Notes: generated by a model not told the origin, from the sequence alone. A stretch of 64,000 bases of DNA from Candidatus Binatia bacterium (GCA_963664015.2 CAXXLF010000001.1:384001-448000); one strand, 5' to 3'; positions 49,601-64,000 are shown, counted from the stretch's first letter. Made by a program: numbers and translations.

Positions 49601-49846
49601 TTGGGAGCCAGATGATTGCTAGCGAATTCCAGATAAGCTTCCGCCATATCTGCATCCCCAGGGTTATGAGGACGCAGCAAGTTGCACTTCTGCAGATATA
49701 TGTGATTTGTGCTCAGTAGGCTCGACCGTCTGGATTGAAGGTCTACTAAATTTGCCTATATAACCGGTCTAATTGTTCGGTTTATAACGTATTTTCGGTA
49801 TTTTGTCTATAGAGACTATCTTATTTCTAGCTGGTTTCTCTGGCCT

Positions 49847-49911
49847 GCGCCGTGAAATAATATCTCCGATTATTACCTTATCAACCCCCTCTAGCCACTA
49901 TTTCACCGGGC
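49847..49911. repeat. Hairpin element CCGTGAAATA-N39-TATTTCACCGG
   Basis: Inverted arms at 49847-49859 and 49899-49911. Same left flank (GTTTCTCTGGCCTGC) as the copy at 63023-63084. Confidence 0.75.
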
Positions 49912-50045
49912 GAACTGGCTGCTGCTTACTGTCGCCTGCCCTCTGCTGTGTTAGCGCTTTACCCTCCGCGCTATGCTCTTTGCTACCTCCTGCCAGCTGC
50001 ATCATTGATCTCCCACTTCTGTCCTAGGACATCGACGATAGTATA

Positions 50046-51086
50046 TTATTTGGTCACTATCTCCATTGTCCAATCTCGATTGTCCTGATACCAGCCGACC
50101 AGGTTGCTCAGCCCCTCCTCGAGAAAGGTCGTGGGCTTCCAATTCAGCAGTTTTTTAGCCTTGGAGATATCGGCCCAGGTTGCTAGGACATCCGCGGGAT
50201 GTCGAGGCTTATATTGGATTTTTCCAGATTTCTTCACCAGCCCTTCAATCAACCTAATGGCCTCATTCAAAACTACCGGTTTATCGGAACCGAGGTTGAT
50301 AATCTCGAATCCCAACGGCTTGAGGGAAGCCACCGTTCCCCGCGCGATATCGTCGACGTAGGTAAAATCCCGCGACTGCTTGCCATCTCCAAAGACAGTG
50401 ACCTCTCGGCCTTCGTTGATCCACTGAACGAATCTAAAGAGGCTCATATCCGGCCGGCCTCCCGGACCGTAGACTGTAAAGAATCGAAGAACTGCCACAT
50501 CGATCTTATGAAGGTAATAGTATGTATAACAGAGCGCTTCAGCCGCCTTCTTTGAGGCTGCATAGGGAGAGAGGGGTTGGTCGGTGGGGTCGGATTCGCG
50601 AAAAGGTTTATTTAGTTTGTTTGGTTTATCTAGTTGCTCTGGTTTGTTTAGATTGTCTAGTTGCTTCGGTTGGCCATAGAGGCTGGAGGTCGATGCGAGG
50701 ACAAATTTGTTCACGCCGAATTCGCGGCATAGGTCAAGGAGGTTGAGACATCCCCCGATATTGGTCTCGTAGTAAATCCAGGGGTTATCGACGGACGGTC
50801 GGACACCGGCGCGGGCGGCGAGGTTGATTACAGCGTCAAGAGGCGAATGGCGAATAGCAAATAGCGAATGGAATAAATCCTTGAGTGCGGCCCGGTCACA
50901 GATGTCGAGGCGATGGAAGTCGAAGCCGGGTTTGCCCTGGAGCTGGGCGAGGCGCCAGTCTTTGAGACGGACATCATAGGCATCGTTAAGATTGTCAACT
51001 CCAATGACATGGTGGCCATCCTGAAGTAACAATTCACAGACTTTCGAACCGATAAAACCGGCGGAGCCGGTGACGAGAATGTGCAT
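50046..51086 (-). CDS. NAD-dependent epimerase (UDP-glucuronate 4-epimerase/WcaG-like) with two repeat-derived in-frame insertions
   Basis: TGSAGFIG, NLAARAGVR, ASTSSLYG, YAASKK, RFFTVYGP.GRPDM. Insertions HSLFAIRHSP and QPKQLDNLNKPEQLDKPNKLNKP. Confidence 0.9.
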   Translation of the reverse strand: MHILVTGSAGFIGSKVCELLLQDGHHVIGVDNLNDAYDVRLKDWRLAQLQGKPGFDFHRLDICDRAALKDLFHSLFAIRHSPLDAVINLAARAGVRPSVDNPWIYYETNIGGCLNLLDLCREFGVNKFVLASTSSLYGQPKQLDNLNKPEQLDKPNKLNKPFRESDPTDQPLSPYAASKKAAEALCYTYYYLHKIDVAVLRFFTVYGPGGRPDMSLFRFVQWINEGREVTVFGDGKQSRDFTYVDDIARGTVASLKPLGFEIINLGSDKPVVLNEAIRLIEGLVKKSGKIQYKPRHPADVLATWADISKAKKLLNWKPTTFLEEGLSNLVGWYQDNRDWTMEIVTK

Positions 51087-51529
51087 GGTGTTTATTGGGT
51101 TTCTCTAGTTTATCTAGTTCGTTTAGTTGATTTGGTTTCTTTGGATTATTTAGTCTCTTCGGTCTATCTGGTCTATTCAGGCACTCACGTCTAATCAGTC
51201 TATGTGGTCTGTCTGGTTGATCTTCCGCCAGAGGCGGATCAGCCCCCGCCTAAGGCGGGTCCCCCTCAGGAGGATCGAGCGGAAGTTTGTCTCGTCTCTT
51301 TAGTCTATCTAGTTCTTCCCGTTCGTTGAGTTCCTTGGGTTTTTTTAGTTATCGATTTTCTCTAGTTTGTCGAGTCTCTTGAGTTCGTTGTGCTCTTTGA
51401 GTTGGTGTGGTCCGCAGTCAGGAGTTCCGTGCTGGTTTTTCGATTAACTGTTAACCATTGACTATTAACTACTTTCTGATCTCTGACCTCTGACCTCTGG
51501 TACCTGCCATTTGCTATTGGCCAACTAAC
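51087..51529. repeat. Layered intergenic repeat cassette (7-mers, 90-bp core, 9-mers, REP-like palindromes)
   Basis: Read on the minus strand: CCAATAGCAAATGG, CAGAGGTCAGAGGTCAGAGATCAGA, TTAATAGTCAATGG, the core at 51379-51468, 9-mer runs, and a CCGCC-N3-GGCGG triplet at 51220-51276. Confidence 0.85.
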
Positions 51530-52063
51530 CTACCGTCTTCCGATCATTTCCTGATTCAAGACCAATCGGGTCTGGCGCCCTAGGAGATCGAGCAGAACAG
51601 CCACTCGCTCCGAACCCTTCATCTCACTCTCGAAGAGAGCTTCGAGGCTTGCCATCGGCCCTTCCTTGATCAGAACGGTCTCACCGGCCAGGTATGGCCG
51701 GGGTTTGTAATCTGCCACACCATCGGGGCAGCGCTTCCGGAGATCGGCGACCACTTCCTCCTCTACTTCCGTAATGTTGTTTCCGAATCTTACAAAGTCC
51801 TTAACCCCTGGAGCATACCTTGCGGCCTTGCCGGCAACAAAAAGATCCAGTCGACAGAACAGATATCCGGGAAAGAGCGGATCCAACACCTTTTGAAACC
51901 GGCTCCCTATCCGGCGCCGCATACGAACCCACGGCAAAAAGACCTCCAGGTCAAGATCCATATACCTCCTCTCAACGGTCTTTTCTTTTTTGACCTTGGT
52001 CTGGACTACATACCAACGAAGCCCGGTGTTAAATACTGCGCGACTTTTGCTGCTATCCTTCAT
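51530..52063 (-). CDS. rfaH: RfaH/UpxY-like NusG-paralogue transcription antiterminator
   Basis: WYVVQTK, VFLP, PLFPGYLF, PGVKDFVRFG (NGN domain); KOW-like GETVLIKEGP...LLDLLGR. Sits at the head of the glycan operon. Confidence 0.88.
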   Translation of the reverse strand: MKDSSKSRAVFNTGLRWYVVQTKVKKEKTVERRYMDLDLEVFLPWVRMRRRIGSRFQKVLDPLFPGYLFCRLDLFVAGKAARYAPGVKDFVRFGNNITEVEEEVVADLRKRCPDGVADYKPRPYLAGETVLIKEGPMASLEALFESEMKGSERVAVLLDLLGRQTRLVLNQEMIGRR

Positions 52064-52073
52064 AAAGCAAATC

Positions 52074-52836
52074 CTAATTAATGGCTCCAAAGAGACCTAT
52101 TTCCGTAACTAAAGTCTCCACTCTATCCGGGAACCTTCCGTCCTGTATGCGTTTTTCCACCTTACCTACCGCAATGGCTACAGCGCCGGCCTTGACACCG
52201 AGAAGGGTCCCGATCGACAGCAAAGTAAGCTGGGTTTCTTTTCTGATTAAATACATGGTGAGGTGCTGCGCGATAGCCTTACGACTCCTCTTCTGCATCT
52301 CTCCATCCCCATCCAAACCCATGGTAAGGCTGATCTGCCGGATAATGTCTTTGGCTTTTATAAGATCGGCGCCGTCGATTTGAGGCCGGTTGGATGATAC
52401 CATTCTAGGAGCACCGAGGGTGGGGTTTATCCCATTTTTATTCTCTTTGAGTACGGGGACCCACCGGCATAGACGGTGAATCTGGCCGGTAAAATTAATG
52501 AGTTGATCCTTGGGCAAAAGCAGGCTTTTATAACGCCCATCAAAGAGGGTGCCACTCCTCTTGTAACGTCGGTTAAAATAGGCGACATAGCTCGTGCCTA
52601 ATCCCTGCATGAACCTGCCGATATTCGTCCTTGGAGTCTCCAAAATTATCTGGAGATGGTTGGTCACGAGGATATATCCGTAAAGGCGGCAACCCAATCG
52701 TTTTCTGTAGCGGTTTAAAAGATCTATGTAATAGGATTGATCCTTAGTAATCACGGAAGATCGCTTGACGATTGTTGCATTCAACCGTGATACAGTACAA
52801 GGCATTTTCAAATTGAGATTTGAGCGTGCGTGTCAT
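52074..52836 (-). pseudogene. Degenerate RAYT/IS200-like Y1 transposase with C-terminal DnaA-domain-IV-like HTH; frameshift near 52750
   Basis: MTRTLKSQFENALYCITVECNNRQAIFRD in one frame joins KDQSYYIDLL...VTNHLQII...YFNRRYKRSGTLFDGRYKS in another. HUH His reads Gln and the catalytic YIH reads QIH. C-terminal AQHLTMYLIRKETQLTLLSIGTLLG. Confidence 0.75.
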
Positions 52837-53109
52837 TGCTTTACAAAGGTAATAAGAGCAATGAAGACACTGTAAGGTACTGTAATGGTAACAAATGTCA
52901 AGTAAAAACATTAAAAGCCTGCCCCCTTTGTCACGAACCTTTAATATCAATGAATAGAGCGCTAACCCTAAGGCTGTGGGTAAATTACTAACAGTCCGTG
53001 CGTAACGGATTCTAAGTATTTAGAATGTTGGAACTCTTCGCTAGTTTTACTAAAAAGGAATGACTATTATTTCAGAAGAGATTTTTATTTTATCTGTAAG
53101 GGTATTTTT
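52837..53109. promoter_or_regulatory. AT-rich divergent promoter region (glycan operon / aroE-like)
   Basis: Lies between divergent genes. Minus-strand TTGACA at 52901-52896 is followed by tandem TTACAGT repeats; the -10 element is weak. Confidence 0.4.
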
Positions 53110-54228
53110 TTGGCTTCAGTTACCGACACGATCGAATCCCTCCAGGCCTGCATCGACAACCCCCTGGACCGGAATCTAATCGGCAAGAATATGATTGCGG
53201 GGATCGTTGGCGATGCCCCGTCCCATTACGCCAAGAGCCCGCCGATCTGGAACGCCGCTTTCCGTCGACTTGGAATAGACGCACTCTATCTTCCCTTTGA
53301 TGTCCAAACCTCGCGGCTCAAAGACCTCGCGAGCGTCCTCAAGGACTCGGAGCGGATCATGGGAGTTAACATCACGGTACCTTACAAGGTCCAAATATTG
53401 GATCACCTGGATGGACTGGAGGAGAAAGCCGATCAGATCAAGGCTGTCAACACGGTGGTCCGGACCGAGGATGGACGCCTCTTGGGATCCAACACGGATG
53501 GCAGCGGCTTTTTGGATAGCATCCGGTCACCTCGTTACAGGCAGGAGGGGGCGTTTATGGAGACTCTTGACGGTATCGATGTCCTGATGATCGGTGCCGG
53601 GGGATCGGCTCGAGCCTTGGCCTTTTATCTCGCGGAGACCATGGGATCCGGGAAACTCCTGATCTGTAACCGTACAGCAAAGGCGGCCGAATCCCTGGCA
53701 CGGGAAGTGTCACAGGCATTCGGTAACGCTCAGGCTATCAAAGAAAATGAAATCGCTGTCTGGGCACCCAAGGTAGGTTTGATCGTCAATTGCTCGACGC
53801 GAGGCCAAGGAGGTATTCGAAAGATGGTCGACGGTCGAGTCACCGTCCTGGAGCCTTTTTCGGCTTTGGCGCCTGCTAATCCGGCCGCTTTCCCGGAATC
53901 GACTCTTTCAAATCCGGATTTTTATCGGGATTGGCTGAAAGCGTCCCAATCGGACGTCGAGGCTAATCAGGAGGCATCGCTCAGCCTAGCTCGTTCGATT
54001 CCATCTCACGTGGCCTTTTGCGACTTGATCTATTATCCGGAAGAGACGGTTTTTTTACGCCACGGTCGCCTAACCGGCCATCGGACTCTGAATGGCAAGG
54101 GCATGAACGTAGCTCAGGCTGTAGCCGCGTTTTTCAACAAGGTGTGTCGATCTTATCTGCGAGATCAAGGGAAAGACGATCCCGCGACCTATCAACTGGT
54201 GATCGACGCTATGACCGAAGCCTGGTGA
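53110..54228 (+). CDS. aroE: Shikimate dehydrogenase-like protein (long variant)
   Basis: SPPIWN, GVNITVPYK, AVNT, NTDGSGF, IGAGGSARA, NRT, DLIYYPEET.FL, NGKGM. Confidence 0.85.
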   Translation: MASVTDTIESLQACIDNPLDRNLIGKNMIAGIVGDAPSHYAKSPPIWNAAFRRLGIDALYLPFDVQTSRLKDLASVLKDSERIMGVNITVPYKVQILDHLDGLEEKADQIKAVNTVVRTEDGRLLGSNTDGSGFLDSIRSPRYRQEGAFMETLDGIDVLMIGAGGSARALAFYLAETMGSGKLLICNRTAKAAESLAREVSQAFGNAQAIKENEIAVWAPKVGLIVNCSTRGQGGIRKMVDGRVTVLEPFSALAPANPAAFPESTLSNPDFYRDWLKASQSDVEANQEASLSLARSIPSHVAFCDLIYYPEETVFLRHGRLTGHRTLNGKGMNVAQAVAAFFNKVCRSYLRDQGKDDPATYQLVIDAMTEAW

Positions 54229-54358
54229 GCCCCGTACCGTAGACTCGAAAAGTACAGCCCCCCCTTATGGTAATAGACGGCAGATTTTCACTACTCGTCG
54301 GACCGTAGTGGCGAAGGCTCCGACACCCTAATCCTGGATCTTTTTTCCGGATCGGTGC

Positions 54359-55156
54359 TCATCTATTATGAGGTGCTTTACGGTACTGGGTAATTGAGGG
54401 CCAAATCATGGAAATGCCGAACAAGACCAAGAGGAAACTAATCCACTGGGCCTGGGTCATGCCCAGGCCCAGTACTGGGTTGATGCGCCAAAACTCAACC
54501 ATGAAGCGAGCTGCCCCTGCAAGGACCAGATAGAGCCAAAAGATTATACCGTACGGAAGATTTTTCTTTCGTATAGACCACAAGATTCCGAAGATCACCA
54601 GAGATTGAAAAAATTCATAGAGGGGTGTCGGGTGAACGCTGACTCCGGGAGGATAAGGCACACCCGTCAGGGGATGGACCCAACCAATGATGGCCTTCGT
54701 ATAGGCGACGGCCCAGGGTAAATCCGAAACGGTGCCCCAGTCCCCATCTCCCGCCAAATGGCAACCTATCCTTCCAATACCGTATGCGATGGCTAAAGCC
54801 GGTATACAGATATCCGCCGCCTGGAGCCAGGGGATCCCGTTGCGCCTCACGATCCAGGTTACCGCCAACACCCCACCTAACAGACCGCCATACCAGGTAA
54901 AACCCGCACCGCTGATTATAAAATCCAGTGGGGACTGAATAAACCGGTTCCAGTCCTCAAAGATAAAGAAGATCCTCGCACCTAATAGTCCACCCACGGC
55001 CCCGGCGATGACCAGCGTCGATGCCAGTTCCGGATCGTATCGGTAACGTTTCAGCTCCAGCCAGACGATCCATCCGGCTACCATCGCGGCAATCGCCATG
55101 AGAGTCCCGAAGCTGTAGACGGTCAACGGGCCTAATTTGAAGATAATGGGGTACAT
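54359..55156 (-). CDS. lgt: Prolipoprotein diacylglyceryl transferase
   Basis: MYPIIF..GP, GARI, WYGG, IGRIGC..GDGDWG, HPTPLYE, RFMVEFWR. Confidence 0.93.
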   Translation of the reverse strand: MYPIIFKLGPLTVYSFGTLMAIAAMVAGWIVWLELKRYRYDPELASTLVIAGAVGGLLGARIFFIFEDWNRFIQSPLDFIISGAGFTWYGGLLGGVLAVTWIVRRNGIPWLQAADICIPALAIAYGIGRIGCHLAGDGDWGTVSDLPWAVAYTKAIIGWVHPLTGVPYPPGVSVHPTPLYEFFQSLVIFGILWSIRKKNLPYGIIFWLYLVLAGAARFMVEFWRINPVLGLGMTQAQWISFLLVLFGISMIWPSITQYRKAPHNR

Positions 55157-55479
55157 GGGACAGTTATTAGTTATTGGTCAATAGTAAAGGGTGAATGGTA
55201 AATAGTTAGTCAAGGGGAAATCGTGAAGCATCAATAGTTATTGGTCAATCGGGAACAGCAAATAGCGAATCGTGAAAAGCAAATAGTCAATGTTTAATAG
55301 TACCTGCCGGGAACTGGAGTGTAAAGCTTTAGGGTGAAGGCGTTTGTTGGGTTATTTGTGTTTATTGAGTTCGTTGTGCTCTTTGAGTTGGTGTGGTCCG
55401 TAGTCAGTAGTTCCGTGCTGGTTTTTCGATCAACTGTTAACCATTGACTATTAAGGATTCACGATTTACCAATCTATGC
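55157..55479. repeat. Layered intergenic repeat cassette including 90-bp core (55365-55454)
   Basis: TTATTGGTCAATAG and GCAAATAGCGAATCG 7-mer runs. The core matches 51379-51468 at 87 of 90 nt. Confidence 0.85.
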
Positions 55480-55920
55480 ATGCGTCTTGTTATCCAGAGG
55501 GTCAGCCAGGCCAAAGTTACGGTCGATGGACGCGAGATCGGCAACATTGCCCAGGGCCTTTGCCTGTTCCTGGGTATTGCCAAGGGTGATAATAAGCAGA
55601 ACGCCGATTATCTAGCCCAAAAGTCTGCAGAGCTGAGGATCTTTGAGGATGACACTGGGAAATTCAACCGGTCGCTGTCGGAAATAGGTGGTGAGGCCCT
55701 GGTAGTATCACAGTTTACCCTTTACGGCGACTGCACCAAGGGACGTCGCCCCTCCTTCAGTCATGCGGCACCCCCTGACGAAGCAGAGGTCCTATACAAC
55801 TATTTCGTCGATCAACTGCGCGATAAGGGGATAAAGATAGGGACCGGCCAATTTCAGGCAAAGATGGAGGTTTCCATCGTAAACACTGGACCTGTAACTC
55901 TTATTTTGGATAGTAAATAG
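55480..55920 (+). CDS. dtd: D-aminoacyl-tRNA deacylase
   Basis: MRLVIQRV, LRIFED, SQFTL, GRRPSF, N.GPVT. Confidence 0.95.
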   Translation: MRLVIQRVSQAKVTVDGREIGNIAQGLCLFLGIAKGDNKQNADYLAQKSAELRIFEDDTGKFNRSLSEIGGEALVVSQFTLYGDCTKGRRPSFSHAAPPDEAEVLYNYFVDQLRDKGIKIGTGQFQAKMEVSIVNTGPVTLILDSK

Positions 55921-56226
55921 CCGTTAACCAGACGTCGGAGATCAGAGATCGGCAAGTAGTTAATAGTCAATAGTTATTGGTTATTTGTCAATGGTTAACA
56001 GAACAGAAACCCAGATCCTGGCACGTAACAATGAGCCCAACTTAGCCGCGTTCAACTAGATAAACCTCAGGCGGATCCACCAGAGGCGGACCCGCCTTTG
56101 GCGGGGACTGATCCGCCTCTGGTGGAAGATAGACCTGATAACCCCAAAAACCCAGCAAACCCGAGAAACTGAACGAACTAAACCAACCAGATAGACTAAA
56201 AAACGAAATCAACCAGAGCAACCGCC
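55921..56226. repeat. Layered intergenic repeat cassette with REP-like palindrome cluster (56065-56130)
   Basis: CAGACGTCGGAGATCAGAGATCGG, TAATAGTCAATAG, CCGCC-N3-GGCGG units (inverted copy of 51220-51276), then 9-mer runs. Confidence 0.85.
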
Positions 56227-56679
56227 ATGCACGTCGTCCTATACCAACCTGAGATTCCGCCCAATACGGGATCGATCGCTCGCCTGTGTGCCGCAACCAA
56301 AACACCACTCCATTTGATTGCACCCCTGGGCTTCAAGATTGATGATAAGCACCTCAAACGAGCCGGCCTCGATTACTGGAGATTTGTCGACCTAACCCTT
56401 CATGATTGTTGGGAAGAATTCCTTGCAAAAAGTTGCGATCAACGATTGCTCTTTTTTTCCAAGAAAGCCAGTAAATCGTATACCCAGGCGATCTATCAAG
56501 ACAGCGATTCTCTCATCTTTGGCCCGGAGACTCGAGGTCTCCCCGAAGACCTGCTGGAAACGCATAAAGATCAGGCCTATGTCATTCCGATGATGAGCAA
56601 GGACGTCCGTAGCCTCAACCTTTCCAATGCCGTCTCCATTGTTCTCTACGAAGCGTTGCGACAGAAAGGAAAACTATAG
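56227..56679 (+). CDS. trmL: tRNA (cytidine/uridine-34 2'-O)-methyltransferase
   Basis: LYQPEIPPNTG, RAGLDYW, FGPETRGLP, IPM, RSLNLSNAV..YEALRQ. Confidence 0.95.
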   Translation: MHVVLYQPEIPPNTGSIARLCAATKTPLHLIAPLGFKIDDKHLKRAGLDYWRFVDLTLHDCWEEFLAKSCDQRLLFFSKKASKSYTQAIYQDSDSLIFGPETRGLPEDLLETHKDQAYVIPMMSKDVRSLNLSNAVSIVLYEALRQKGKL

Positions 56680-56889
56680 TCGGCTGCTGAAAAAGACGCA
56701 TATGCCAACAGGCTGCTTCAAGCAGACGCCTATGATAGTGGCGGTTAATCGGCCGGGATAATTTTCTCGCTCTAAGCAGAGTCACTCCAACGTACCGCCT
56801 AAGTACGCCTCCGCTCGTCGATCTTTCGCGCGCCTCGCCTCTGAAATTTTTTTGAACAGTCTGGAAACAGAGTTTTTCAAACCCACTAG
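56677..56889. mobile_element. MITE-like non-autonomous element
   Basis: Left end TAGTCGGCTGCTGAAAAA. Right-hand complements TTTTTGAACAGTCTG (56849-56863) and TTTTTCAAACCCACTAG (56873-56889). Internal CGTAC-N7-GTACG stem. No credible coding capacity. Confidence 0.55.
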
Positions 56890-56958
56890 GTCTGAACCAC
56901 ATTCTTATCGGCGGACCGTGGGTCCGAATAATACGCCTTTAACACGCGTTCAAAGGGC

Positions 56959-56992
56959 TTGACGGGATGACCGAATGTGATTAATGTATCAC
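56959..56992 (+). promoter_or_regulatory. Putative sigma70 promoter overlapped by a GTGAT-N6-ATCAC palindrome
   Basis: TTGACG at 56959; palindrome at 56977-56992; GGAGG RBS at 57016-57020 before ATG 57030. Confidence 0.35.
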
Positions 56993-57029
56993 TCTAGTGA
57001 ATCCTAATAGAATTTGGAGGCGTTGTTCT

Positions 57030-58250
57030 ATGTTTACTAGGTTCCTTAAGCCGTTTCGGTTATCGCTGCTCGGTTTTATCATACCCCTTATTGCATTATC
57101 GGTAGTAACCCTGTCGGGTGCGGCTCAAAGTGGAAGAGCCTTTAATCTCATCCTCTCCTATACGGATGTGACCGTCGGCCCCGGTCAAGATTTCGAGATG
57201 GACGTTGACGTGGTCAATCCGGGGAAGGAGCCCGTCCTGGTCAAACTACAGACCGACTCGGTCCCTGGAGGCTGGGAAGCCGCCTTTCACTCCCGTTACC
57301 CTAGCTTTCCCGTGCGGTCGGTCATGGTGGAGGGAGAAAAATCCAAGACCCTGGAGTTCAAGGTCAAGGTCCCGGATAAAGTTGATGGCAAAACCTTCAC
57401 CATTAAAGTTTCAGCCAAAGACAGGCGGGGTGGCTCGGCACAATCCGAGACGATAACCTTTCGCCTAGTTGCCAAAAAGGTCGAAACTGGAGGGCTCAAG
57501 CTGGAAAGCCAATACCCGGAATTGACCGGTCCGACCAATCAAACTTTCAAGTTCAGCGTTGATCTCAAAAACGAAACCGACAAAGACCTCACCACAGCCG
57601 TATCGGGGCAAGCACCCTCCGGGTGGCGGGTCCTTGTAAAACCCCAGTTCGACGATAATATCCTCTCCTCCATCGCCCTTAAGAAAAGCGCCTCTCAAAC
57701 CCTGAGCGTGGAGATCGAAGCTCCGACGCTCGCCGAGGCCGGCGAATATCCCATTAGCTTCACGGCGCTATCGGGACCCTTCAAGGCCGAAAAGCAGTTC
57801 AAAGTGATATTGACCGGTACTTATGATTTCATCATGGGAGTGCCCACTCCGGGTGACCGGCTGGCCCTCAGGCTCAACACTTCGGTTAAAGTAGGCAAAA
57901 AATCCGACGTGGATTTCGTGATCGTCAATACGGGGACGGCTCCCCTTCTCAACCTAACCTTCAAATCTACTAAACCCGAGGGCTGGACTTTGGAGTTCGA
58001 ACCAAAGAAAATCGACTCACTCAAGCCGGGAGATTTCCGCCAGATCGTCACTTCGATTCAGACCGCTGACCGAACCATTGCGGGAGATTATCTTTTGAAC
58101 GTAACTTCAAAAAATCCGGACGCCACCAAGAACATCGACTTCCGAGTCACCGTAGCACCACCGACACTTTGGGGCTGGATTGGCGCCCTGATCGTCGCTC
58201 TCGTCATCCTCGGGCTATCAGCTGTCTTTTACCGTTTGGGCCGACGATGA
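57030..58250 (+). CDS. Exported/membrane-anchored protein with repeated Ig-like (NEW3/COG1470-like) domains
   Basis: Signal-like N terminus; three repeats with P.GW motifs (VPGGW, APSGW, KPEGW); C-terminal TM ending RLGRR. First gene of an ABC-2 operon. Confidence 0.75.
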   Translation: MFTRFLKPFRLSLLGFIIPLIALSVVTLSGAAQSGRAFNLILSYTDVTVGPGQDFEMDVDVVNPGKEPVLVKLQTDSVPGGWEAAFHSRYPSFPVRSVMVEGEKSKTLEFKVKVPDKVDGKTFTIKVSAKDRRGGSAQSETITFRLVAKKVETGGLKLESQYPELTGPTNQTFKFSVDLKNETDKDLTTAVSGQAPSGWRVLVKPQFDDNILSSIALKKSASQTLSVEIEAPTLAEAGEYPISFTALSGPFKAEKQFKVILTGTYDFIMGVPTPGDRLALRLNTSVKVGKKSDVDFVIVNTGTAPLLNLTFKSTKPEGWTLEFEPKKIDSLKPGDFRQIVTSIQTADRTIAGDYLLNVTSKNPDATKNIDFRVTVAPPTLWGWIGALIVALVILGLSAVFYRLGRR

Positions 58251-59206
58251 GCGCGATCATTGCAACTAAAGGTCTGACCAAGCGCTACCGGGACCTGATC
58301 GCAGTTAACGATCTCAACCTCGACGTTGAACAAAAAGAGATATTCGGGTTCCTCGGCCCCAACGGTTCCGGCAAGACGACGACTATCCTGATGCTCCTGG
58401 GGCTGACCGAACCGACGGGCGGTGATGCCACCGTCTGTGGTTTTAATCCAACCAGAAACCCGTTGGAGGTAAAAAGACGTGTCGGCTACCTTCCCGAGAG
58501 CCCGGGCTTTTACGAGGACCTTAGCGCCGAGGACAACCTGCTCTATATCGGTCGCCTGAACCGGGTCGATGGCATTGAGAACGGACATCGCATCGGGGAG
58601 GTCCTTGAACAAGTGGAACTCGCCGCCGAGAAGAATCGCCCGGTGAGAGAATTTTCCCGCGGTATGAAGCAGAGGCTAGGCTTTGCCGAGGTCCTGATCA
58701 AGGAACCTGAGGTTATCATACTGGATGAGCCGACACTCGGGATCGATCCCGATGGCGTCAACCGAATCCTTGACCTGATCCTCAGCCTCAATCGGGATCA
58801 GGGACTCACGGTCATGCTCAGCTCTCACCTACTCCACCAGGTACAGCGGATCTGCAACCGTATCGGAATCATCGTCAACGGCAAAATGATCGTCCATGGC
58901 ACGGTGGATGTGCTAGGCAAAGCCATCCTCAGAGAGCACCAGTGGAATTTCCTGCTCGAGGTTGCGGGTCAAACGGATCAGTTGCAGTCGGATCTCGAGT
59001 TGCTTCCCGGTGTCGGCAAGGTAGAGCCGCGCGTGAACGGTTGGTTCTTACGTTGCACCAAAGACGTACGAGCCGAACTGGTTTCCCTGGTTCAGGGAAA
59101 GGGCTGCTCACTACTGCAACTGCGCTCCGAGGACCCTACATTGGAGGAGATATATCTCAAATACTTTCGGGACGAGGGTAAACAGCCAGTTGCAAATAGC
59201 GAATAG
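58247..59206 (+). CDS. ABC-2 type ATP-binding protein
   Basis: GPNGSGKTT, FSRGMKQR, ILDEPT, SSHLL. ATGA overlap with the upstream gene. Confidence 0.92.
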   Translation: MSAIIATKGLTKRYRDLIAVNDLNLDVEQKEIFGFLGPNGSGKTTTILMLLGLTEPTGGDATVCGFNPTRNPLEVKRRVGYLPESPGFYEDLSAEDNLLYIGRLNRVDGIENGHRIGEVLEQVELAAEKNRPVREFSRGMKQRLGFAEVLIKEPEVIILDEPTLGIDPDGVNRILDLILSLNRDQGLTVMLSSHLLHQVQRICNRIGIIVNGKMIVHGTVDVLGKAILREHQWNFLLEVAGQTDQLQSDLELLPGVGKVEPRVNGWFLRCTKDVRAELVSLVQGKGCSLLQLRSEDPTLEEIYLKYFRDEGKQPVANSE

Positions 59207-59479
59207 TTGTTAGCCCGATGTCGGAGGTCGGCAAAAAATCAATAGTCATTGGTCAACGGCGAATAGAAAATAGTTAATAGTTATTAGTCAACAGTTAATC
59301 GAAAAACCAGCACGGAACTACTGACTACGGACCACACCAACTCAAAGAACCCAACAAAACAGATCAACCAAACAAACTAGATAAACTAAACGATCCCGAA
59401 AAACTCAAGAAACGCAATAAACTCGATCAACTCGACAAAGATAGAAGAGATAGACCAAGGATATAAGGACGGAGCTAAT
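59207..59479. repeat. Layered intergenic repeat cassette including inverted core copy (59290-59348)
   Basis: GCAAATAGCGAATAG (supplies the upstream stop codon), GATGTCGGAGGTCGG, TCAATAG runs, the core CACGGAACTACTGACTACGGACCACACCAACTCAAAGA, then 9-mer runs. Confidence 0.85.
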
Positions 59480-60376
59480 ATGGGTGTTGTTTTTTGGAAG
59501 GAACTTTCGGACCATTTCGGCAGTCGACGCTTTTTTATCCTGCTGATCTTAATACTGCTAACGGGGCTTTGGGCCGTTTTTAGCTCCGGCCAAGCCATCC
59601 GGGATCTGGCACAAGAGATTCCAACAGAGTTTGTCTTCCTGCTTCTTCTCACCGCCCAGCCGGGAACCGCTTTTTCATTAGCTGGCTTTTTGATGTTCTT
59701 TGGTCCCCTGGTAGGCATCACTCTGGGTTTTGACTCAATCAGTGGCGAATATGCAGGAGGGACCTTGAGCCGTGTCCTATCCCAACCTATTTACCGTGAC
59801 AATCTGATCACCGGGAAATTCCTCGCAGGGCTTGCCACGGTTGCGATCTTTTGGGCCGCTATTTTACTCATTGTAATCGGCTTCGGCATCGTGCTTTTGG
59901 GCTTTCCTCCAAATGCAGAGGAACTGTGGCGGATGCTGATCTTTACGGTAGCAGGTATCCTGTATGTAGGGTTCTGGCTCGCACTAGCCTCACTTTTCTC
60001 TCTACTCTTTAAACGCACGGTCACGGCAGCCTTGGCCTCCCTCGCTACGTGGCTGTTCCTTGCGGTCTTTTTCGGCATGATCGCTCAGGGCGTCGCGGCG
60101 CTCTTCAACTCGACCAATCACAACATACAGCTAATGATCAGCCGGATTTCACCCAATTTCCTGTTTGCCGATGCCATTCGCATTCTGATCGATCCCCGGG
60201 GCGAGATCCTCGAACGAGCGACTCGAGGCCAAGCCGCGGGAATCCTCCCCACCCCTCTGGACCTCGGGCAGAGTTTGGCGGTGATCTGGCCGCATCTGAC
60301 CACCTTGTTCGCCCTCGTCGCAATTTGTTTCGGGATTGCTTATATCAAGTTTATGCGGGAAGAAATACGTGCGTAG
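59480..60376 (+). CDS. ABC-2 type permease
   Basis: KELSDHF, GFDSISGE..GGTL.RVLSQPI.RD..I.GKF, about six TM helices. Confidence 0.9.
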   Translation: MGVVFWKELSDHFGSRRFFILLILILLTGLWAVFSSGQAIRDLAQEIPTEFVFLLLLTAQPGTAFSLAGFLMFFGPLVGITLGFDSISGEYAGGTLSRVLSQPIYRDNLITGKFLAGLATVAIFWAAILLIVIGFGIVLLGFPPNAEELWRMLIFTVAGILYVGFWLALASLFSLLFKRTVTAALASLATWLFLAVFFGMIAQGVAALFNSTNHNIQLMISRISPNFLFADAIRILIDPRGEILERATRGQAAGILPTPLDLGQSLAVIWPHLTTLFALVAICFGIAYIKFMREEIRA

Positions 60377-60409
60377 ACTGACCAGACAACAGACGTCGAA
60401 GATCAGGTA

Positions 60410-60790
60410 ATGCAGCTGAACTCGGCGAAGGACCTGGATGTTTATAAGAAAATCTACCAATTGGCTATGAAGGTCTTCGAAATGAGCAAAGACTTCGCCG
60501 CCGAGGAGAGATTTGCTTTAACAAGCCAAATTCGGCGGGCATCACGTTCTGTTTGCCTGAATCTACGTGAGGCCTGGGCAACGAGAAGGTATGAAGCGTA
60601 TTTTGTAAGTAAACTAACTGATTGCAACGGAGAAAACAGTGAGACGGATTCCGCTTTAGATTTCTCCAAATATTGCGGTTACATCACACGATAGCAACAT
60701 CATGAATTGGTGGCCCTTTGTCAACAAGTTGGCAAGATGCTCGGTAGCATGCTCAAGAATCCCGGGCCCTTTCTAACCTCCGAGCGCTGA
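60410..60790 (+). pseudogene. Four-helix-bundle protein (TIGR02436/IVS-protein/Avd-like) with in-frame TAG at 60692-60694
   Basis: KDLDVYKK...F..EERFALTSQIRRASRSV..NL.EAW..RRY...F.SKL.D..GE..ET. After the TAG the frame continues QHHELVALCQQVGKMLGSMLKNPGPF* as the expected fourth helix. Confidence 0.85.
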
Positions 60791-60908
60791 TTTTTTGACT
60801 TCTGACCTCTGAGTTCTGTCGTTCTTTACCCCTTTGCACGGGGCATCTATTTCCTGACTGATCTCCGATGTCTGACTTCTGATCTCTGCCCTCTGACCTC
60901 CGCCCCCT
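60791..60908. repeat. TCTGACC/TCTGATC 7-mer run, inverted relative to the run upstream of the four-helix gene; may act as a terminator between convergent genes
   Basis: TGACTTCTGACCTCTGA...CTGATCTCCGATGTCTGACTTCTGATCTCTG, against upstream CAGACGTCGAAGATCAG at 60390-60406. Confidence 0.7.
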
Positions 60909-61358
60909 CTAATTCCCTTCCAGGTTCTTTCGAATCGCCTCGACAAACTCGGCCATGACCTGGTCGGCTTTTCGCTTGATGATACTACCGCCGAGGGCGG
61001 CCATTTTGCCTAATATTTCCAACGAAACGGTTACCGACATGAGGGTTCCGGGGTCCTCGTCCTTCAGCTTCACCTCCAAATTGACCGTCATGAGACTGCC
61101 GACCTTGCTATCGTTACCCGTGGCGCGGGCCTTGATGAGGGCGAGCGGCACACTATTCTCCACCTCGATCTTCATCGGGAACTTTACCCGAAAAGGCCCC
61201 ACTTTCTCTTCCATCGTAGCAGTATAGACCTTTCCATTTTCGACCGTGCTGGCCTCTTTGCAACCGGGCACACAGGTGATAAATCGGTCCACATCCCAGA
61301 GAAACTGCCACACCTTTTCCCTCGGTGCGCTTATTGCTATATCCTTTTCAAATTGCAT
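60909..61358 (-). CDS. coxG: CoxG/SRPBCC family protein
   Basis: I.APREKVWQFL.D....CVPG, KVGP, GKMAALG..IIK.KAD. Confidence 0.8.
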   Translation of the reverse strand: MQFEKDIAISAPREKVWQFLWDVDRFITCVPGCKEASTVENGKVYTATMEEKVGPFRVKFPMKIEVENSVPLALIKARATGNDSKVGSLMTVNLEVKLKDEDPGTLMSVTVSLEILGKMAALGGSIIKRKADQVMAEFVEAIRKNLEGN

Positions 61359-61629
61359 TTCTCACTCCTTAAATAGTTAGAATTCGGAGGTTGGAAGTCA
61401 GAGATCAGTTGGAAAAAAGACAACTCGCACTGTGGGGGGACCAGTTGCGACCGAGACTGCTCAGCACGGCTGTGACGTCTACTCCACAGGGCAAGAGGAC
61501 GCCAAGTTTGAAAAATTGAACACATCTCTTTCTAAGCTTGGCGTCTTGGCGCGAGAAACATTAGTATTCCTGATCTCCGAACTCTGACTTCTGATCTCTG
61601 ATCTCTGGCTAACATCTATTTTCCATTTT
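61359..61629. repeat. Nested inverted-repeat spacer with hairpin element 61424-61495 (40-nt loop)
   Basis: Outer 7-mer inverted repeat (GTCAGAGATCAG / CTGATCTCTG); middle GACGCCAAG / CTTGGCGTC; inner CTCGCACTGTGG...TACTCCACAGGGCAAG. Confidence 0.8.
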
Positions 61630-62778
61630 CTAATGCCCCCCTGTCATCTCCAAATAACGCTTGAGGCGCTCCATACCGGCCTCGATGTTATCCACCGAAT
61701 TTGCATAACAAAACCTCAAGTAACCTTCCCCATTGGCCCCAAAGTCTATGCCCGGAGTCACCCCCAATTGAACCTTTTCTAGAATATCCATGGCCGTCTT
61801 GAGCGAATCCTCGCCTAATCGTCTGGCGTTGACAAAGACGTAAAAGGCGCCTTTCGGCTCGTGCTCGATGGTAAATCCCAATCGCCTCAGTCCGTCGATT
61901 AAGATCCGTCGTCTTTTATCGTAGATCGTCACCATCTTGGCAACCTCCGGTGCCGCCTCTTTGAGGGCCGTAATTCCGGCCCACTGCACAAAGGCGTTCG
62001 CCGAAATGAGCAGGTTTTGATGTACCTTTTGCACTGTCCGCATAAACCCTTTTGGTACAACGACATAGCCCAGGCGCCATCCCGTCATGGCATAGAGTTT
62101 TGAAAAACCGTTGAAGACAAAGGCCTGATCCGTGTACTCGAGAACCGAGTGCGCATCCTCTCCGTAGGTGAGACCGTGGTAGATTTCGTCGGATAGAATG
62201 ATGGGCCCCATTTGAGCAATCTTTGCCATTCTTTCGGGAGTGAGCAGCATACCGGTGGGATTGGCCGGTGAATTGATTAGAATCCCCTTAGTCCTGGAGG
62301 ACATCTTTTTTTCAATGGCCGCAGGATGCAACTGAAATCCATCGTCCTCGAAGATCTCGACCGCCACGGGGAGCGCTCCCCGGTCTGCAATCATATTGGC
62401 GTAGCAGGCATAACCGGGATCAGGCAGCAAGACCTCGTCACCGTCCTCGAGGAGGGTGGACAGTGTCAGGTAGATGCCCGGTGAGCTCCCGGCAGTCACC
62501 AGAATATTATCCGGTGACACCCGAACACAGTTGCCATTCCACAAATGCTCGCTAATAGCCTCCCGGAGTTCCAGTAGACCCAGACTATGGGTGTAATGGG
62601 TTTTGCCTTCCCGCAATGCCCGGATCGCTGCTTCCTTGATGACTTCCGGGGTGTCGAAGTCAGGCTCGCCTACCTCTAGATGGATAACGGGTTTGCCGGC
62701 GCGCTCCATCTCCTGGGCGCATTCCATGACCTCCATTACGAGAAAGGGGGTCATCGCGTTCGATTTACGAGAAATCAT
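61630..62778 (-). CDS. PLP-dependent class I/II aminotransferase (aspartate aminotransferase-like)
   Basis: LEVGEPDFDTP, THYT, NSPANPTG, SDEIY, NGFSKLYAMTGWRLG, PKGAFY. Confidence 0.92.
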   Translation of the reverse strand: MISRKSNAMTPFLVMEVMECAQEMERAGKPVIHLEVGEPDFDTPEVIKEAAIRALREGKTHYTHSLGLLELREAISEHLWNGNCVRVSPDNILVTAGSSPGIYLTLSTLLEDGDEVLLPDPGYACYANMIADRGALPVAVEIFEDDGFQLHPAAIEKKMSSRTKGILINSPANPTGMLLTPERMAKIAQMGPIILSDEIYHGLTYGEDAHSVLEYTDQAFVFNGFSKLYAMTGWRLGYVVVPKGFMRTVQKVHQNLLISANAFVQWAGITALKEAAPEVAKMVTIYDKRRRILIDGLRRLGFTIEHEPKGAFYVFVNARRLGEDSLKTAMDILEKVQLGVTPGIDFGANGEGYLRFCYANSVDNIEAGMERLKRYLEMTGGH

Positions 62779-63173
62779 TTGGAAGTTAGAGGTCAGAAAG
62801 CCAGAGATCAGACATCGGAATTCGGAGGTCAGAGGTCAGTTGGGAAAAAGATCACTCGCCCTGTGGAGTATTGATCTCAACGTAGGCCGAGTATACCCCC
62901 AAGGGCTTACTCCACGGGGCGAGCGCAAAGATGCAAAGGGCGCCAAGTTCATCGGGTTATTTGGGTTTGTTGGGTTGCTTGCGTTTATTGAGGCCATCTA
63001 GTCAGTCTCGTTTCTCTGGCCTGCCCCGTAAAATTGCACTGGGAAGACTCTCGTAGCTCTACCGGCGAGGTATTTCACTGGGCGCTATGCTCTTTGCGTT
63101 TTACCGTTGACGATTGACCGATAACCATTGACAATTAAGTACTTACTTTTTGCGATTCGCCATTTGCTATTGG
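62779..63173. repeat. Layered spacer with two hairpin elements (62855-62923, 37-nt loop; 63023-63084, 35-nt loop)
   Basis: CTCGCCCTGTGGAGTA...TACTCCACGGGGCGAG; GCCCCGTAAAATT...TATTTCACTGGGC; flanking 7-mer, 9-mer and CGCAAAG runs. Confidence 0.8.
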
Positions 63174-64000
63174 CTACCGGGAATCGGCCATACTGTCCCT
63201 AAGGTCTTTAAACTCTTTGCCAAGGTAATCCTTGAGTTTTTTCTTAACCCGTTCTTCGATTTGCCGTACCCGTTCACGACTGATTCCAAACTCCTCCCCT
63301 ATCTCTCTTAGGGTCGAGGGTTGGTCCGACAACAATCTCTGTTGGAAGATAAACAATTCTTTATCCTTCAGCCCTTTGGCAAACTGCTGGATCTTTTCCT
63401 TCAATACACTACGAAATTCCGTTTCCGCGAATATCTCCTCCGGATTCTGGTTCTCGTCGGCCAATAGGTGGAGAAGCGTCACGTCGCTATCACCCCCAAC
63501 GGGAACGTCGGTGGAGAGATCCCTATTGGATAGACGCTGATCCATCTCTATGACCTCTCCCTCTTTCACATCCAGACGCTGCGCTAAGAGCTTTGGCCCC
63601 GGCGTGTAACCTTCCGCTTCCAATTTCTCCTTTTCCTTCAAGAGATTGAAGAAGAGGCGCCGTTGCGCCTGAGTCTTTCCGATCTTCACCATCCGCCAGT
63701 TGTTCATTACGTAGCGAATGATATAGGCCCGGACCCACCAGACCGCATATGAAGGGAAACGTACGCCCCGATAGGGATCGAACTTTTTGAGGGCCTCCAT
63801 GAGACCGACGTTTCCCTCCTGGATCAAATCCAAAAGGCTTCGGAAGGCCTTTTCATATTCCCGGGCGATCATGACGACTAACCTGAGGTTTGACGTGAGC
63901 AGTTTATAGACCGCTTTGATATTACCGAATTCTTTATACTGGACTGCCAGATCGTGCTCTTCCTCGCGTGTTAATAAGGGGTAGCGACGGATTTCGGTCA
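63174..64000 (-). CDS. rpoH: RNA polymerase sigma-32 factor (N terminus beyond the right edge)
   Basis: Frame is open to the edge (EIRRYPLLTREEE...SNLRLVV). DLIQEGNVGL, FDPYRGVRF, RpoH box QAQRRLFFNL, and region-4 TLREIGEEFGISRERVRQIE. Confidence 0.9.
   Translation of the reverse strand, partial: TEIRRYPLLTREEEHDLAVQYKEFGNIKAVYKLLTSNLRLVVMIAREYEKAFRSLLDLIQEGNVGLMEALKKFDPYRGVRFPSYAVWWVRAYIIRYVMNNWRMVKIGKTQAQRRLFFNLLKEKEKLEAEGYTPGPKLLAQRLDVKEGEVIEMDQRLSNRDLSTDVPVGGDSDVTLLHLLADENQNPEEIFAETEFRSVLKEKIQQFAKGLKDKELFIFQQRLLSDQPSTLREIGEEFGISRERVRQIEERVKKKLKDYLGKEFKDLRDSMADSR

Follow-up and report, generated by a model that had tools for sequence, protein, structure and literature searches.

What kind of hairpin keeps its arms constant while its interior, held to nearly one length, differs from copy to copy? 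The question is raised by four hairpins in a 64,000-nt stretch of DNA from a Candidatus Binatia bacterium (here the window: CAXXLF010000001.1:384001-448000 of GCA_963664015.2), which is C1:384001-448000 of source genome G000 (3.51 Mb in two contigs, C1 and C2; 53.5% G+C). A preliminary description of the window took them for dispersed single-spacer units that might be captured sequences, guide-like RNAs or substrates of a single-strand (HUH) recombinase. Having compared empty and filled sites in G000 and other genomes, we consider it likely that each hairpin is a copy of one very small (61-67 nt), non-autonomous mobile element, which inserts without duplication next to a hexamer able to pair with its own arm. 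The picture of dispersed units with a constant stem and a free but length-limited interior thus stands, whereas the idea that this interior is captured or serves as a guide does not.

All four hairpins lie where they had been placed, with the arms described for them, the second being a decayed copy. An arm-pair scan of the 3.5-Mb genome recovered about 24 good copies. When up to two mismatches are allowed, the arm pairs of the whole genome peak sharply at loops of 37 nt (7 pairs) and 38 nt (10 pairs), with every other length from 10 to 150 nt represented by only 1-4 pairs, a pattern beyond chance. The exact pattern matches G000 4 + 4 times on the two strands, and its reversed control matches neither there nor in any of the 61 genomes searched; in G001, a Bacteroidetes metagenome-assembled genome (MAG), the core 11-mer occurs 40 + 38 times (78 arms) versus 0 + 1 for the control. 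The core stem is 11 bp long (CCCGTGGARTA / TAYTCCACGGG) and encloses a loop of 33-40 nt, and the full stem exceeds the version first reported: six outer pairs beyond the core bring it to 17 bp. Across 88 distinct-loop copies from other genomes (among the matches listed), these six positions are paired in 98, 91, 68, 88, 91 and 62% of copies, and pairing outside them drops to 30-48%. The outer stem covaries (GCTCGC/GCGAGC versus GTTTAC/GTAAAC), the arm being GCTCGC or GCTTGC in G000 and Verrucomicrobia and GTTTAC in Bacteroidota and Ignavibacteria; in 5 of 12 copies in the Verrucomicrobia genome G069, GCTTGC pairs with GCGAG through T·G. RNA folds give one long stem and no substructure common to the loops. 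Searches of Rfam returned no match at gathering score over the window and only chance-level matches at E up to 10 over 61300-63200. Neither short-loop nor long-range versions of the arms were found in G000-G003; a 101-nt 'loop' at C2:1116581, considered as a long-loop version, proved to be a decayed tandem pair.

The insertion rule is evident from a host repeat, M (TTGGCGNNCTTTGCGNCTTTGC), of which 27 copies in G000 run straight into GCGAG (CTTTGC^GCGAG, the caret marking the border) and are empty, whereas 8 copies hold 64-67 nt precisely between CTTTGC and GCGAG, in the order (N)GCTCGC-core-loop-core. Two of these eight contain two units in tandem, and window hairpin no. 3 is among the eight: its site (C1, minus strand, 446925) reads CTTTGC^GCGAGT in the empty copies. 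These 27 and 8 copies belong to 75 script matches to M (followed by GCGAG..atcttt), which also include others.

The same arrangement recurs within protein genes. Among 29 orthologues of a Verrucomicrobia epimerase that were read, 28 lack the insert and 1 is filled. The empty sites have the form ..CAG NCG CTC GCC AAA CCG.. (Q-x-L-A-K-P-F), with CTCGC at the site in 8 of them, and the filled site reads ..GCTCGC^CCCGTGGAATA-38 nt-TATTCCACGGG-GCGAGC^CAAACCG, a net gain of 66 nt with at most a 3-nt GCC ambiguity and no duplication; a pattern scan added five more filled orthologues. Similarly, an HdrA-like gene that is empty in G118 (..CTGGCCCGC^GAAGGG) is elsewhere filled (..CTGGCTCGC^core-38-core-GCAAGC^GAAGGG), again with 66 additional nt. 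A copy with a class D loop (loop classes are treated below) sits in the apical loop of a repeat of ~200 nt, resembling palindrome-associated transposable elements (PATEs), in 2 of 10 aligned copies, at least 3 others being empty there, and hairpins nos. 2-4 are missing at the syntenic intergenic loci of G007 and G009, which represent other genera of the same family. Comparison of empty and filled sites implies that, of the two outer arms, one is part of the element and the other is the pre-existing target. What inserts is a single 6-nt arm followed by core, loop and core, 61-67 nt in all; it lands immediately 5' of a hexamer, GCGAG(C/T), that was there beforehand and is complementary to the arm of the unit, with G·T pairs tolerated (as with target GCGAGT in G000 and GCTTGC opposite GCGAG in G069), and arm and target together lengthen the 11-bp core stem to 17 bp. 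Insertion proceeds without target duplication, and the same target can be used twice, yielding tandem units.

Table 1. Features of the window, in positions counted from its first nucleotide.
Feature	Position	Strand	Parts and remarks
Hairpin no. 1	49843..49915	unassigned (.)	Diverged subfamily; outer gcctgc; core GCCGTGAAATA 49849-49859; 39-nt loop 49860-49898; core TATTTCACCGG 49899-49909; outer gcgaac
NusG-like gene	51530..52090	-	
Y1-like open reading frame (ORF)	52074..52811	-	245 aa; directly upstream of the NusG-like gene and of sugar-nucleotide genes
Hairpin no. 2	61424..61495	unassigned (.)	Decayed copy; outer ctcgca; decayed left arm CTGTGGGGGG 61430-61439; 40-nt loop 61440-61479; TACTCCACAGG 61480-61490; outer gcaag
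Target hexamer of hairpin no. 3	62854..62859	-	ACTCGC on the + strand, GCGAGT on the - strand
Hairpin no. 3, inserted unit of 65 nt	62860..62924	-	On the + strand: core CCTGTGGAGTA 62860-62870; 37-nt loop 62871-62907; core TACTCCACGGG 62908-62918; arm GCGAGC 62919-62924
End of host repeat M	62925..62950	-	Ends ..TTGGCGCCCTTTGCATCTTTGC on the - strand; 3' neighbour GCGAG is the insertion site
Hairpin no. 4	63019..63087	unassigned (.)	Of the subfamily of no. 1; outer gcctgc; core CCCGTAAAATT 63025-63035; 35-nt loop 63036-63070; core TATTTCACTGG 63071-63081; outer gcgcta

The pairwise likeness of outer flanks that had been seen in the window is real: hairpins nos. 1 and 4 have gtttctctggcctgc and gctatgctctt in common, and nos. 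2 and 3 tcagttggRaaaaaga..actcgc and cgccaagtt. The flanks of no. 1 are found again at C1:451669, and the subfamily of nos. 1 and 4 comprises three diverged copies. Read on the minus strand, no. 3 runs GCTCGC, CCCGTGGAGTA, 37-nt loop, TACTCCACAGG, and copies 85-92% similar to it are present in G006, G008 and G009.

Several other repeats accompany the hairpins in G000. The M site (for example at C1:654216, C2:1205702 and C2:1913894, in addition to the copy in the window) also accepts other inserts, 6 with a hairpin 'X' of ~40 nt (CTCGACTTTGCTCGGGACCCTGAGCCTGTCGAAGGGTGC) and at least 2 of a third kind. The PATE-like repeat of ~200 nt (C2:249694-249882, C1:259008-259205 and about 12 more loci) is bounded by two direct short hairpins, CCAYGGGCTTACGCCCRTGG, of which the genome has 28, and it resembles IS200/IS605-derived PATEs, yet the genome has no TnpA. 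Intergenic segments of the window (51087-51529, 61360-61420, 62780-62850 and 62950-63020) hold runs of short oligomers (tcagagg-type heptamers; gtttgttgggtt / tagtctatc-type), and the syntenic spacers in G007 and G009 hold comparable runs that are not the same in sequence. Unlike the rest of the genome, the first ~140 kb of C2 contain microsatellite-like runs (acacac.., gtgtgt.., ctctct..) together with one long inverted pair (C2:4730-4819 / 118562-118652), and may be foreign or mis-binned DNA.

Because the unit equals the loop plus 28 nt, inserts of 63 and 66 nt, which preserve the reading frame, arise when the loop measures 35 or 38 nt; loops of these two lengths account for 31 of the 36 loci, among the matches listed, at which the frame is open throughout. 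The in-frame inserts read LAPWN..YSTGRA or SPRGI..IPRGE and occur in the epimerase, the HdrA-like protein, glycosidases, kinases and others. In a rhamnosidase-family protein, removal of 63 nt brings the length to that of its relatives; its orthologues, at ~50% identity, are too distant for the target hexamer to be read, and the insert length alone fits. One HdrA-like protein of ~1550 aa (L184:516-5162 and L226, from Verrucomicrobia MAGs) carries two hairpin inserts 60 residues apart, and in one orthologue the arm of the first insert has already mutated (LAPWNN to LAPRNN).

The distribution of the element is broad across phyla and patchy within them. An exact scan for the core with a gap of 33-42 nt returned at least 115 loci, and the MAG labels of the core loci cover at least eight phyla among the matches listed: Verrucomicrobiae, Bacteroidetes, Ignavibacteria/Melioribacter, Deltaproteobacteria, Binatia and Omnitrophota, together with WOR-3, Lentisphaerae, Saccharibacteria, Parcubacteria and Limnocylindrales. 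Binning errors may lie behind a few labels (Bifidobacteriaceae, Methanosarcinales). The element is present in 4 of 61 genomes of the order to which G000 belongs, all four from its own family (whose members include one 6.0-Mb genome in 7 contigs), and in 3 of 121 genomes of one Verrucomicrobia order, one of the three being G069, whose 11 perfect copies have strongly different loops.

Could the hairpin be mainly a structured RNA or DNA signal useful to the host, such as an mRNA stabiliser or terminator, whose mobility is secondary? The copies in G000 are intergenic, and 18 of the 24 lie between co-directional genes as judged by a crude ORF caller (19 with Pfam-supported genes for hairpin no. 1), for example between thiS and thiG or cinA and thpR; G·T pairs occur in the stems, and such roles are ascribed to repetitive extragenic palindromic (REP) sequences in passages of PMC3733652. 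Nonetheless, we judge this explanation unlikely: no Rfam family matches, the stem is identical on both strands, class A loops have no constant orientation relative to transcription (2 versus 4 co-directional cases), the element is patchy among relatives, and copies that sit in frame within genes cannot be terminators.

The 17-bp inverted ends, small size and many copies would also suit an ordinary miniature inverted-repeat transposable element (MITE) of a DDE transposon, with two terminal inverted repeats (TIRs) around a deleted interior. To this we give very little weight, as the fixed-length direct duplication that marks such elements is absent from the clean sites (epimerase, HdrA-like gene and M repeat), and 6 nt of one 'TIR' were already there as the target. 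Furthermore, it is the innermost 11 bp that are conserved and the outer bases that covary, the opposite of TIRs, and long-range arm pairs spanning an ORF do not occur in G000-G003.

An origin as a miniature derivative or trans-substrate of TIRtrons, in which a Y1 transposase is fused to a DnaA-C helix-turn-helix, is suggested by three observations: the window encodes an ORF (Table 1) with a Y1-like region and a Bac_DnaA_C helix-turn-helix, the Y1 genes of G069 are exclusively TIRYT-like, and the stem TATTCCAC is loosely similar to TTATCCACA, which we take to be the DnaA box (the arms presumably resemble both DnaA boxes and parS half-sites). The HUH motif of the ORF is degenerate (NHLQ), and G009 carries a syntenic orthologue of the gene (53% identity), as G030 apparently does, so that with the motif lost and synteny kept it looks like a domesticated, catalytically dead transposase, now a host gene. 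As a partner of the hairpins the ORF was rejected, since its homologues occur in 53 of the 61 genomes of the order versus 4 of 61 for the hairpins. The TIRYT genes of G003-G005 are flanked by TIRs of the GGGGTCAG type, not by the core, and the TIRYT loci of G069 lack the arms, whereas a TIRtron is recognised by inverted repeats flanking its TIRYT gene; on these two grounds, TIR sequence and armless loci, we set a TIRtron origin aside as highly improbable. A shared GGGGWSAS motif is a further mark of TIRtrons according to PMC3733652.

What, then, is the interior? The four window loops are indeed unrelated to one another, as had been noted, but genome-wide the loops form classes. Within G000, loops match only loops of their own class: class A comprises 322205 and 450112; class B 766985, 2013735 and 456200; class C C1:76737 and window hairpin no. 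3, whose loop agrees with that at C1:76748 at 22 of 23 positions; and class G 909819 and 2034378. The loops of nos. 1, 2 and 4 have no relative in G000, and that of no. 2 carries a motif, cgaccgagactg, known from class G. The class G copies (C2:909819-909878 and C2:2034378-2034437) lie upstream of start codons, by 18 nt at thiG and by 8 nt at a 2H-phosphoesterase (ThpR/LigT-like) gene; both are oriented alike with respect to transcription and may affect translation start. The class A loop occurs in both orientations relative to one M flank, including in two homologous tandem composites, which indicates that loops flip. Loops drift and can flip, while the core and the loop length are kept. A reading of the loops as guide RNAs or as foreign sequence that was captured, in CRISPR-like single-spacer units, is scarcely credible and already largely refuted: loops of 33-40 nt between constant stems do have the length of spacers and the window loops are mutually unrelated, but all four went unmatched in phage and plasmid collections at E up to 1, a collection of 2.9 million viral contigs gave a single match, loop matches stay within their own class, the same classes recur across genera of the family and in other MAGs (a 'Candidatus Binatia' MAG among them), the arms are inverted instead of direct repeats, and some copies are in frame within genes. 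The hairpins are not a store of captured spacers, and pairing with the target is by the 6-nt outer arm, not by the loop.

We are left with a mobile hairpin, probably REP- or PATE-like and of single-strand-DNA nature by analogy with those elements. The suggestion of an HUH-type substrate holds as to behaviour, insertion being mobile, free of target-site duplication and target-specific as in single-strand (HUH/Y1) transposons; it does not extend to the enzyme itself, which was not found. In the mechanism that we envisage, the element would move as single-stranded DNA after the hairpin is cut at the arm and target borders, and the excised hairpin would perhaps be closed to a circle, whose junction (core-GCGAGC-core) would be the sequence found between tandem units. 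The mover would be an HUH/Y1-type enzyme acting in trans, as in IS200/IS605 and REP-RAYT systems (RAYT, REP-associated tyrosine transposase), and the copies in G000 might be old relics whose intact enzyme is gone. Loops might flip in place between the inverted cores, or else because either strand of the symmetric structure could be mobilised.

No linked gene was found, the only Y1-like ORF of the window being the degenerate one described above. The RAYT genes of G001, G002 and G003 are flanked by short REPs of their own, whose stems (ACCCC..GGGGT, CCGTGG..CCACGG) resemble that of the element; the resulting link to RAYTs is suggestive only. The IS200 copies of a Binatia relative, G004, were considered as a source and rejected, as their end hairpins differ.

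A bolder version of the mobile hairpin, which we hold to be possible but doubtful, is a self-guided minimal transposon: the arm would pick the site by wobble-tolerant pairing, and the cross-phylum core would be what is gripped by an enzyme other than a classical RAYT or an IS200 TnpA, since no gene of either kind turned up in G069, with its 11 perfect copies. The symmetry of the inserted structure could allow either strand to be excised, which would swap arm and target and flip the loop. If true, DNA insertion would be programmed here in a new and very compact manner.

Several observations weigh against regarding the hairpins as a mobile element of this kind. The exact borders come from three contexts (M repeat, epimerase and HdrA-like gene); the search of G000 gave no empty counterpart of hairpins nos. 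1 and 4, because their flank motif is too common, and in Bacteroidota, where the copies have repeats on either side, the borders could not be fixed. Since copies outside G000 were selected by perfect cores, the contrast between a conserved core and drifting loops is biased. With regard to the enzyme, G000 has no intact Y1 transposase, no Y1_Tnp match over the cut-off and no TnpA, its sole Y1-like match being the window ORF at about 21-22 bits, below the cut-off of 23; among the 115 matches listed, a RAYT lies within 4 kb at only 1 locus and no neighbour family recurs within that distance; G069 yields just 4 TIRYT-like genes and no short RAYT/IS200 gene; and the long-range scan of G000-G003 revealed no arm pairs flanking an ORF. 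As for movement itself, Logan contigs, which break at the repeat, provided neither an excision joint or intermediate nor any read-level sign of movement, and a lone joint near hairpin no. 4 came from a contig with 7 differences over 52 bases, which we read as another locus. Finally, the G·T pairs would fit an RNA stage or RNA function equally well.

Among known systems, the closest in appearance are REPs and their doublets (REPINs), which are linked to RAYT (Y1 HUH) transposases and include GTAG-tagged families, as treated in parts of Di Nocera et al. 2013 (PMC3733652) and Bertels & Rainey 2011 (PMC3116915). Like them, the element is a small dispersed palindromic hairpin without coding capacity, found mainly between co-directional or convergent genes, also within genes, nested in other repeats and clustered, with G·T pairs in its stem. 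For REP families, PMC3733652 describes stems 6-13 bp long and loops that mostly measure 2-5 nt and reach 27 nt at most. By contrast, the element measures 61-67 nt with a 17-bp stem and a loop of 33-40 nt, compared with a REP palindrome of 20-40 nt. It has no GTAG (or CGTC) tag, its flanks being GCTCGC/GTTTAC, with R-TAG at the core/loop border only; its arms are not self-complementary, so it forms no REP doublet, a REPIN being two inverted REPs that each fold into a hairpin; it does not flank a RAYT gene, whereas REPs flank a single-copy one in their own genome; its 11-bp core recurs in many phyla, unlike the lineage-specific REPs; and it has a defined target hexamer that pairs with its own arm.

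IS200/IS605 elements transpose as single strands in a manner dependent on hairpins, inserting beside a short specific sequence without duplication. PATEs are miniature derivatives of this family (PMC6006769). The element resembles both in its insertion at a short specific target without duplication and in target reuse, and would resemble them in hairpin dependence and a single-strand route. It differs in being one hairpin in place of separate subterminal left-end and right-end hairpins, in having a hexamer paired (Watson-Crick or wobble) to its terminal arm as target instead of a tetra- or pentanucleotide that an internal guide recognises, and in having no linked TnpA gene.

Rickettsia palindromic elements also reside in frame within seemingly functional protein genes, as the element does, although sequence, size and hosts differ, and although the element has a defined insert length (63 or 66 nt) and target; they are assigned to CGTC-tagged REP families in a portion of PMC3733652. 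No R'/R'' boxes or bulged bases such as characterise an integron attC site are visible in the element, a comparison that did not include a search for an integron integrase. The attC boxes are RYYYAAC / GTTRRRY. The small dispersed repeats of cyanobacterial Nostoc, an account of Elhai et al. from 2008, are reportedly 21-27 nt long and nest in hairpins of other repeats; by that account, the element would be like them in being a very small mobile repeat nested in hairpins.

The element therefore works like REPs/REPINs and IS200/IS605-derived miniatures, yet departs from what defines each. We found no description of it in open-access papers and preprints, supplementary files lying outside the search, and a literature search with four arm 11-mers retrieved only unrelated primer matches. 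For annotation, the element flags assembly breaks caused by the repeat as well as spurious ORFs, and it accounts for odd inserts of 21-22 residues (LAPWN..YSTGRA, SPRGI..IPRGE) in Verrucomicrobia proteins. With a core common to distant phyla and a target apparently read by pairing with its own end, it would rank among the smallest elements of bacteria whose insertion follows a defined rule, and it offers a concrete substrate with which to look for the mover of REP-like DNA, a question that concerns REPs in general.

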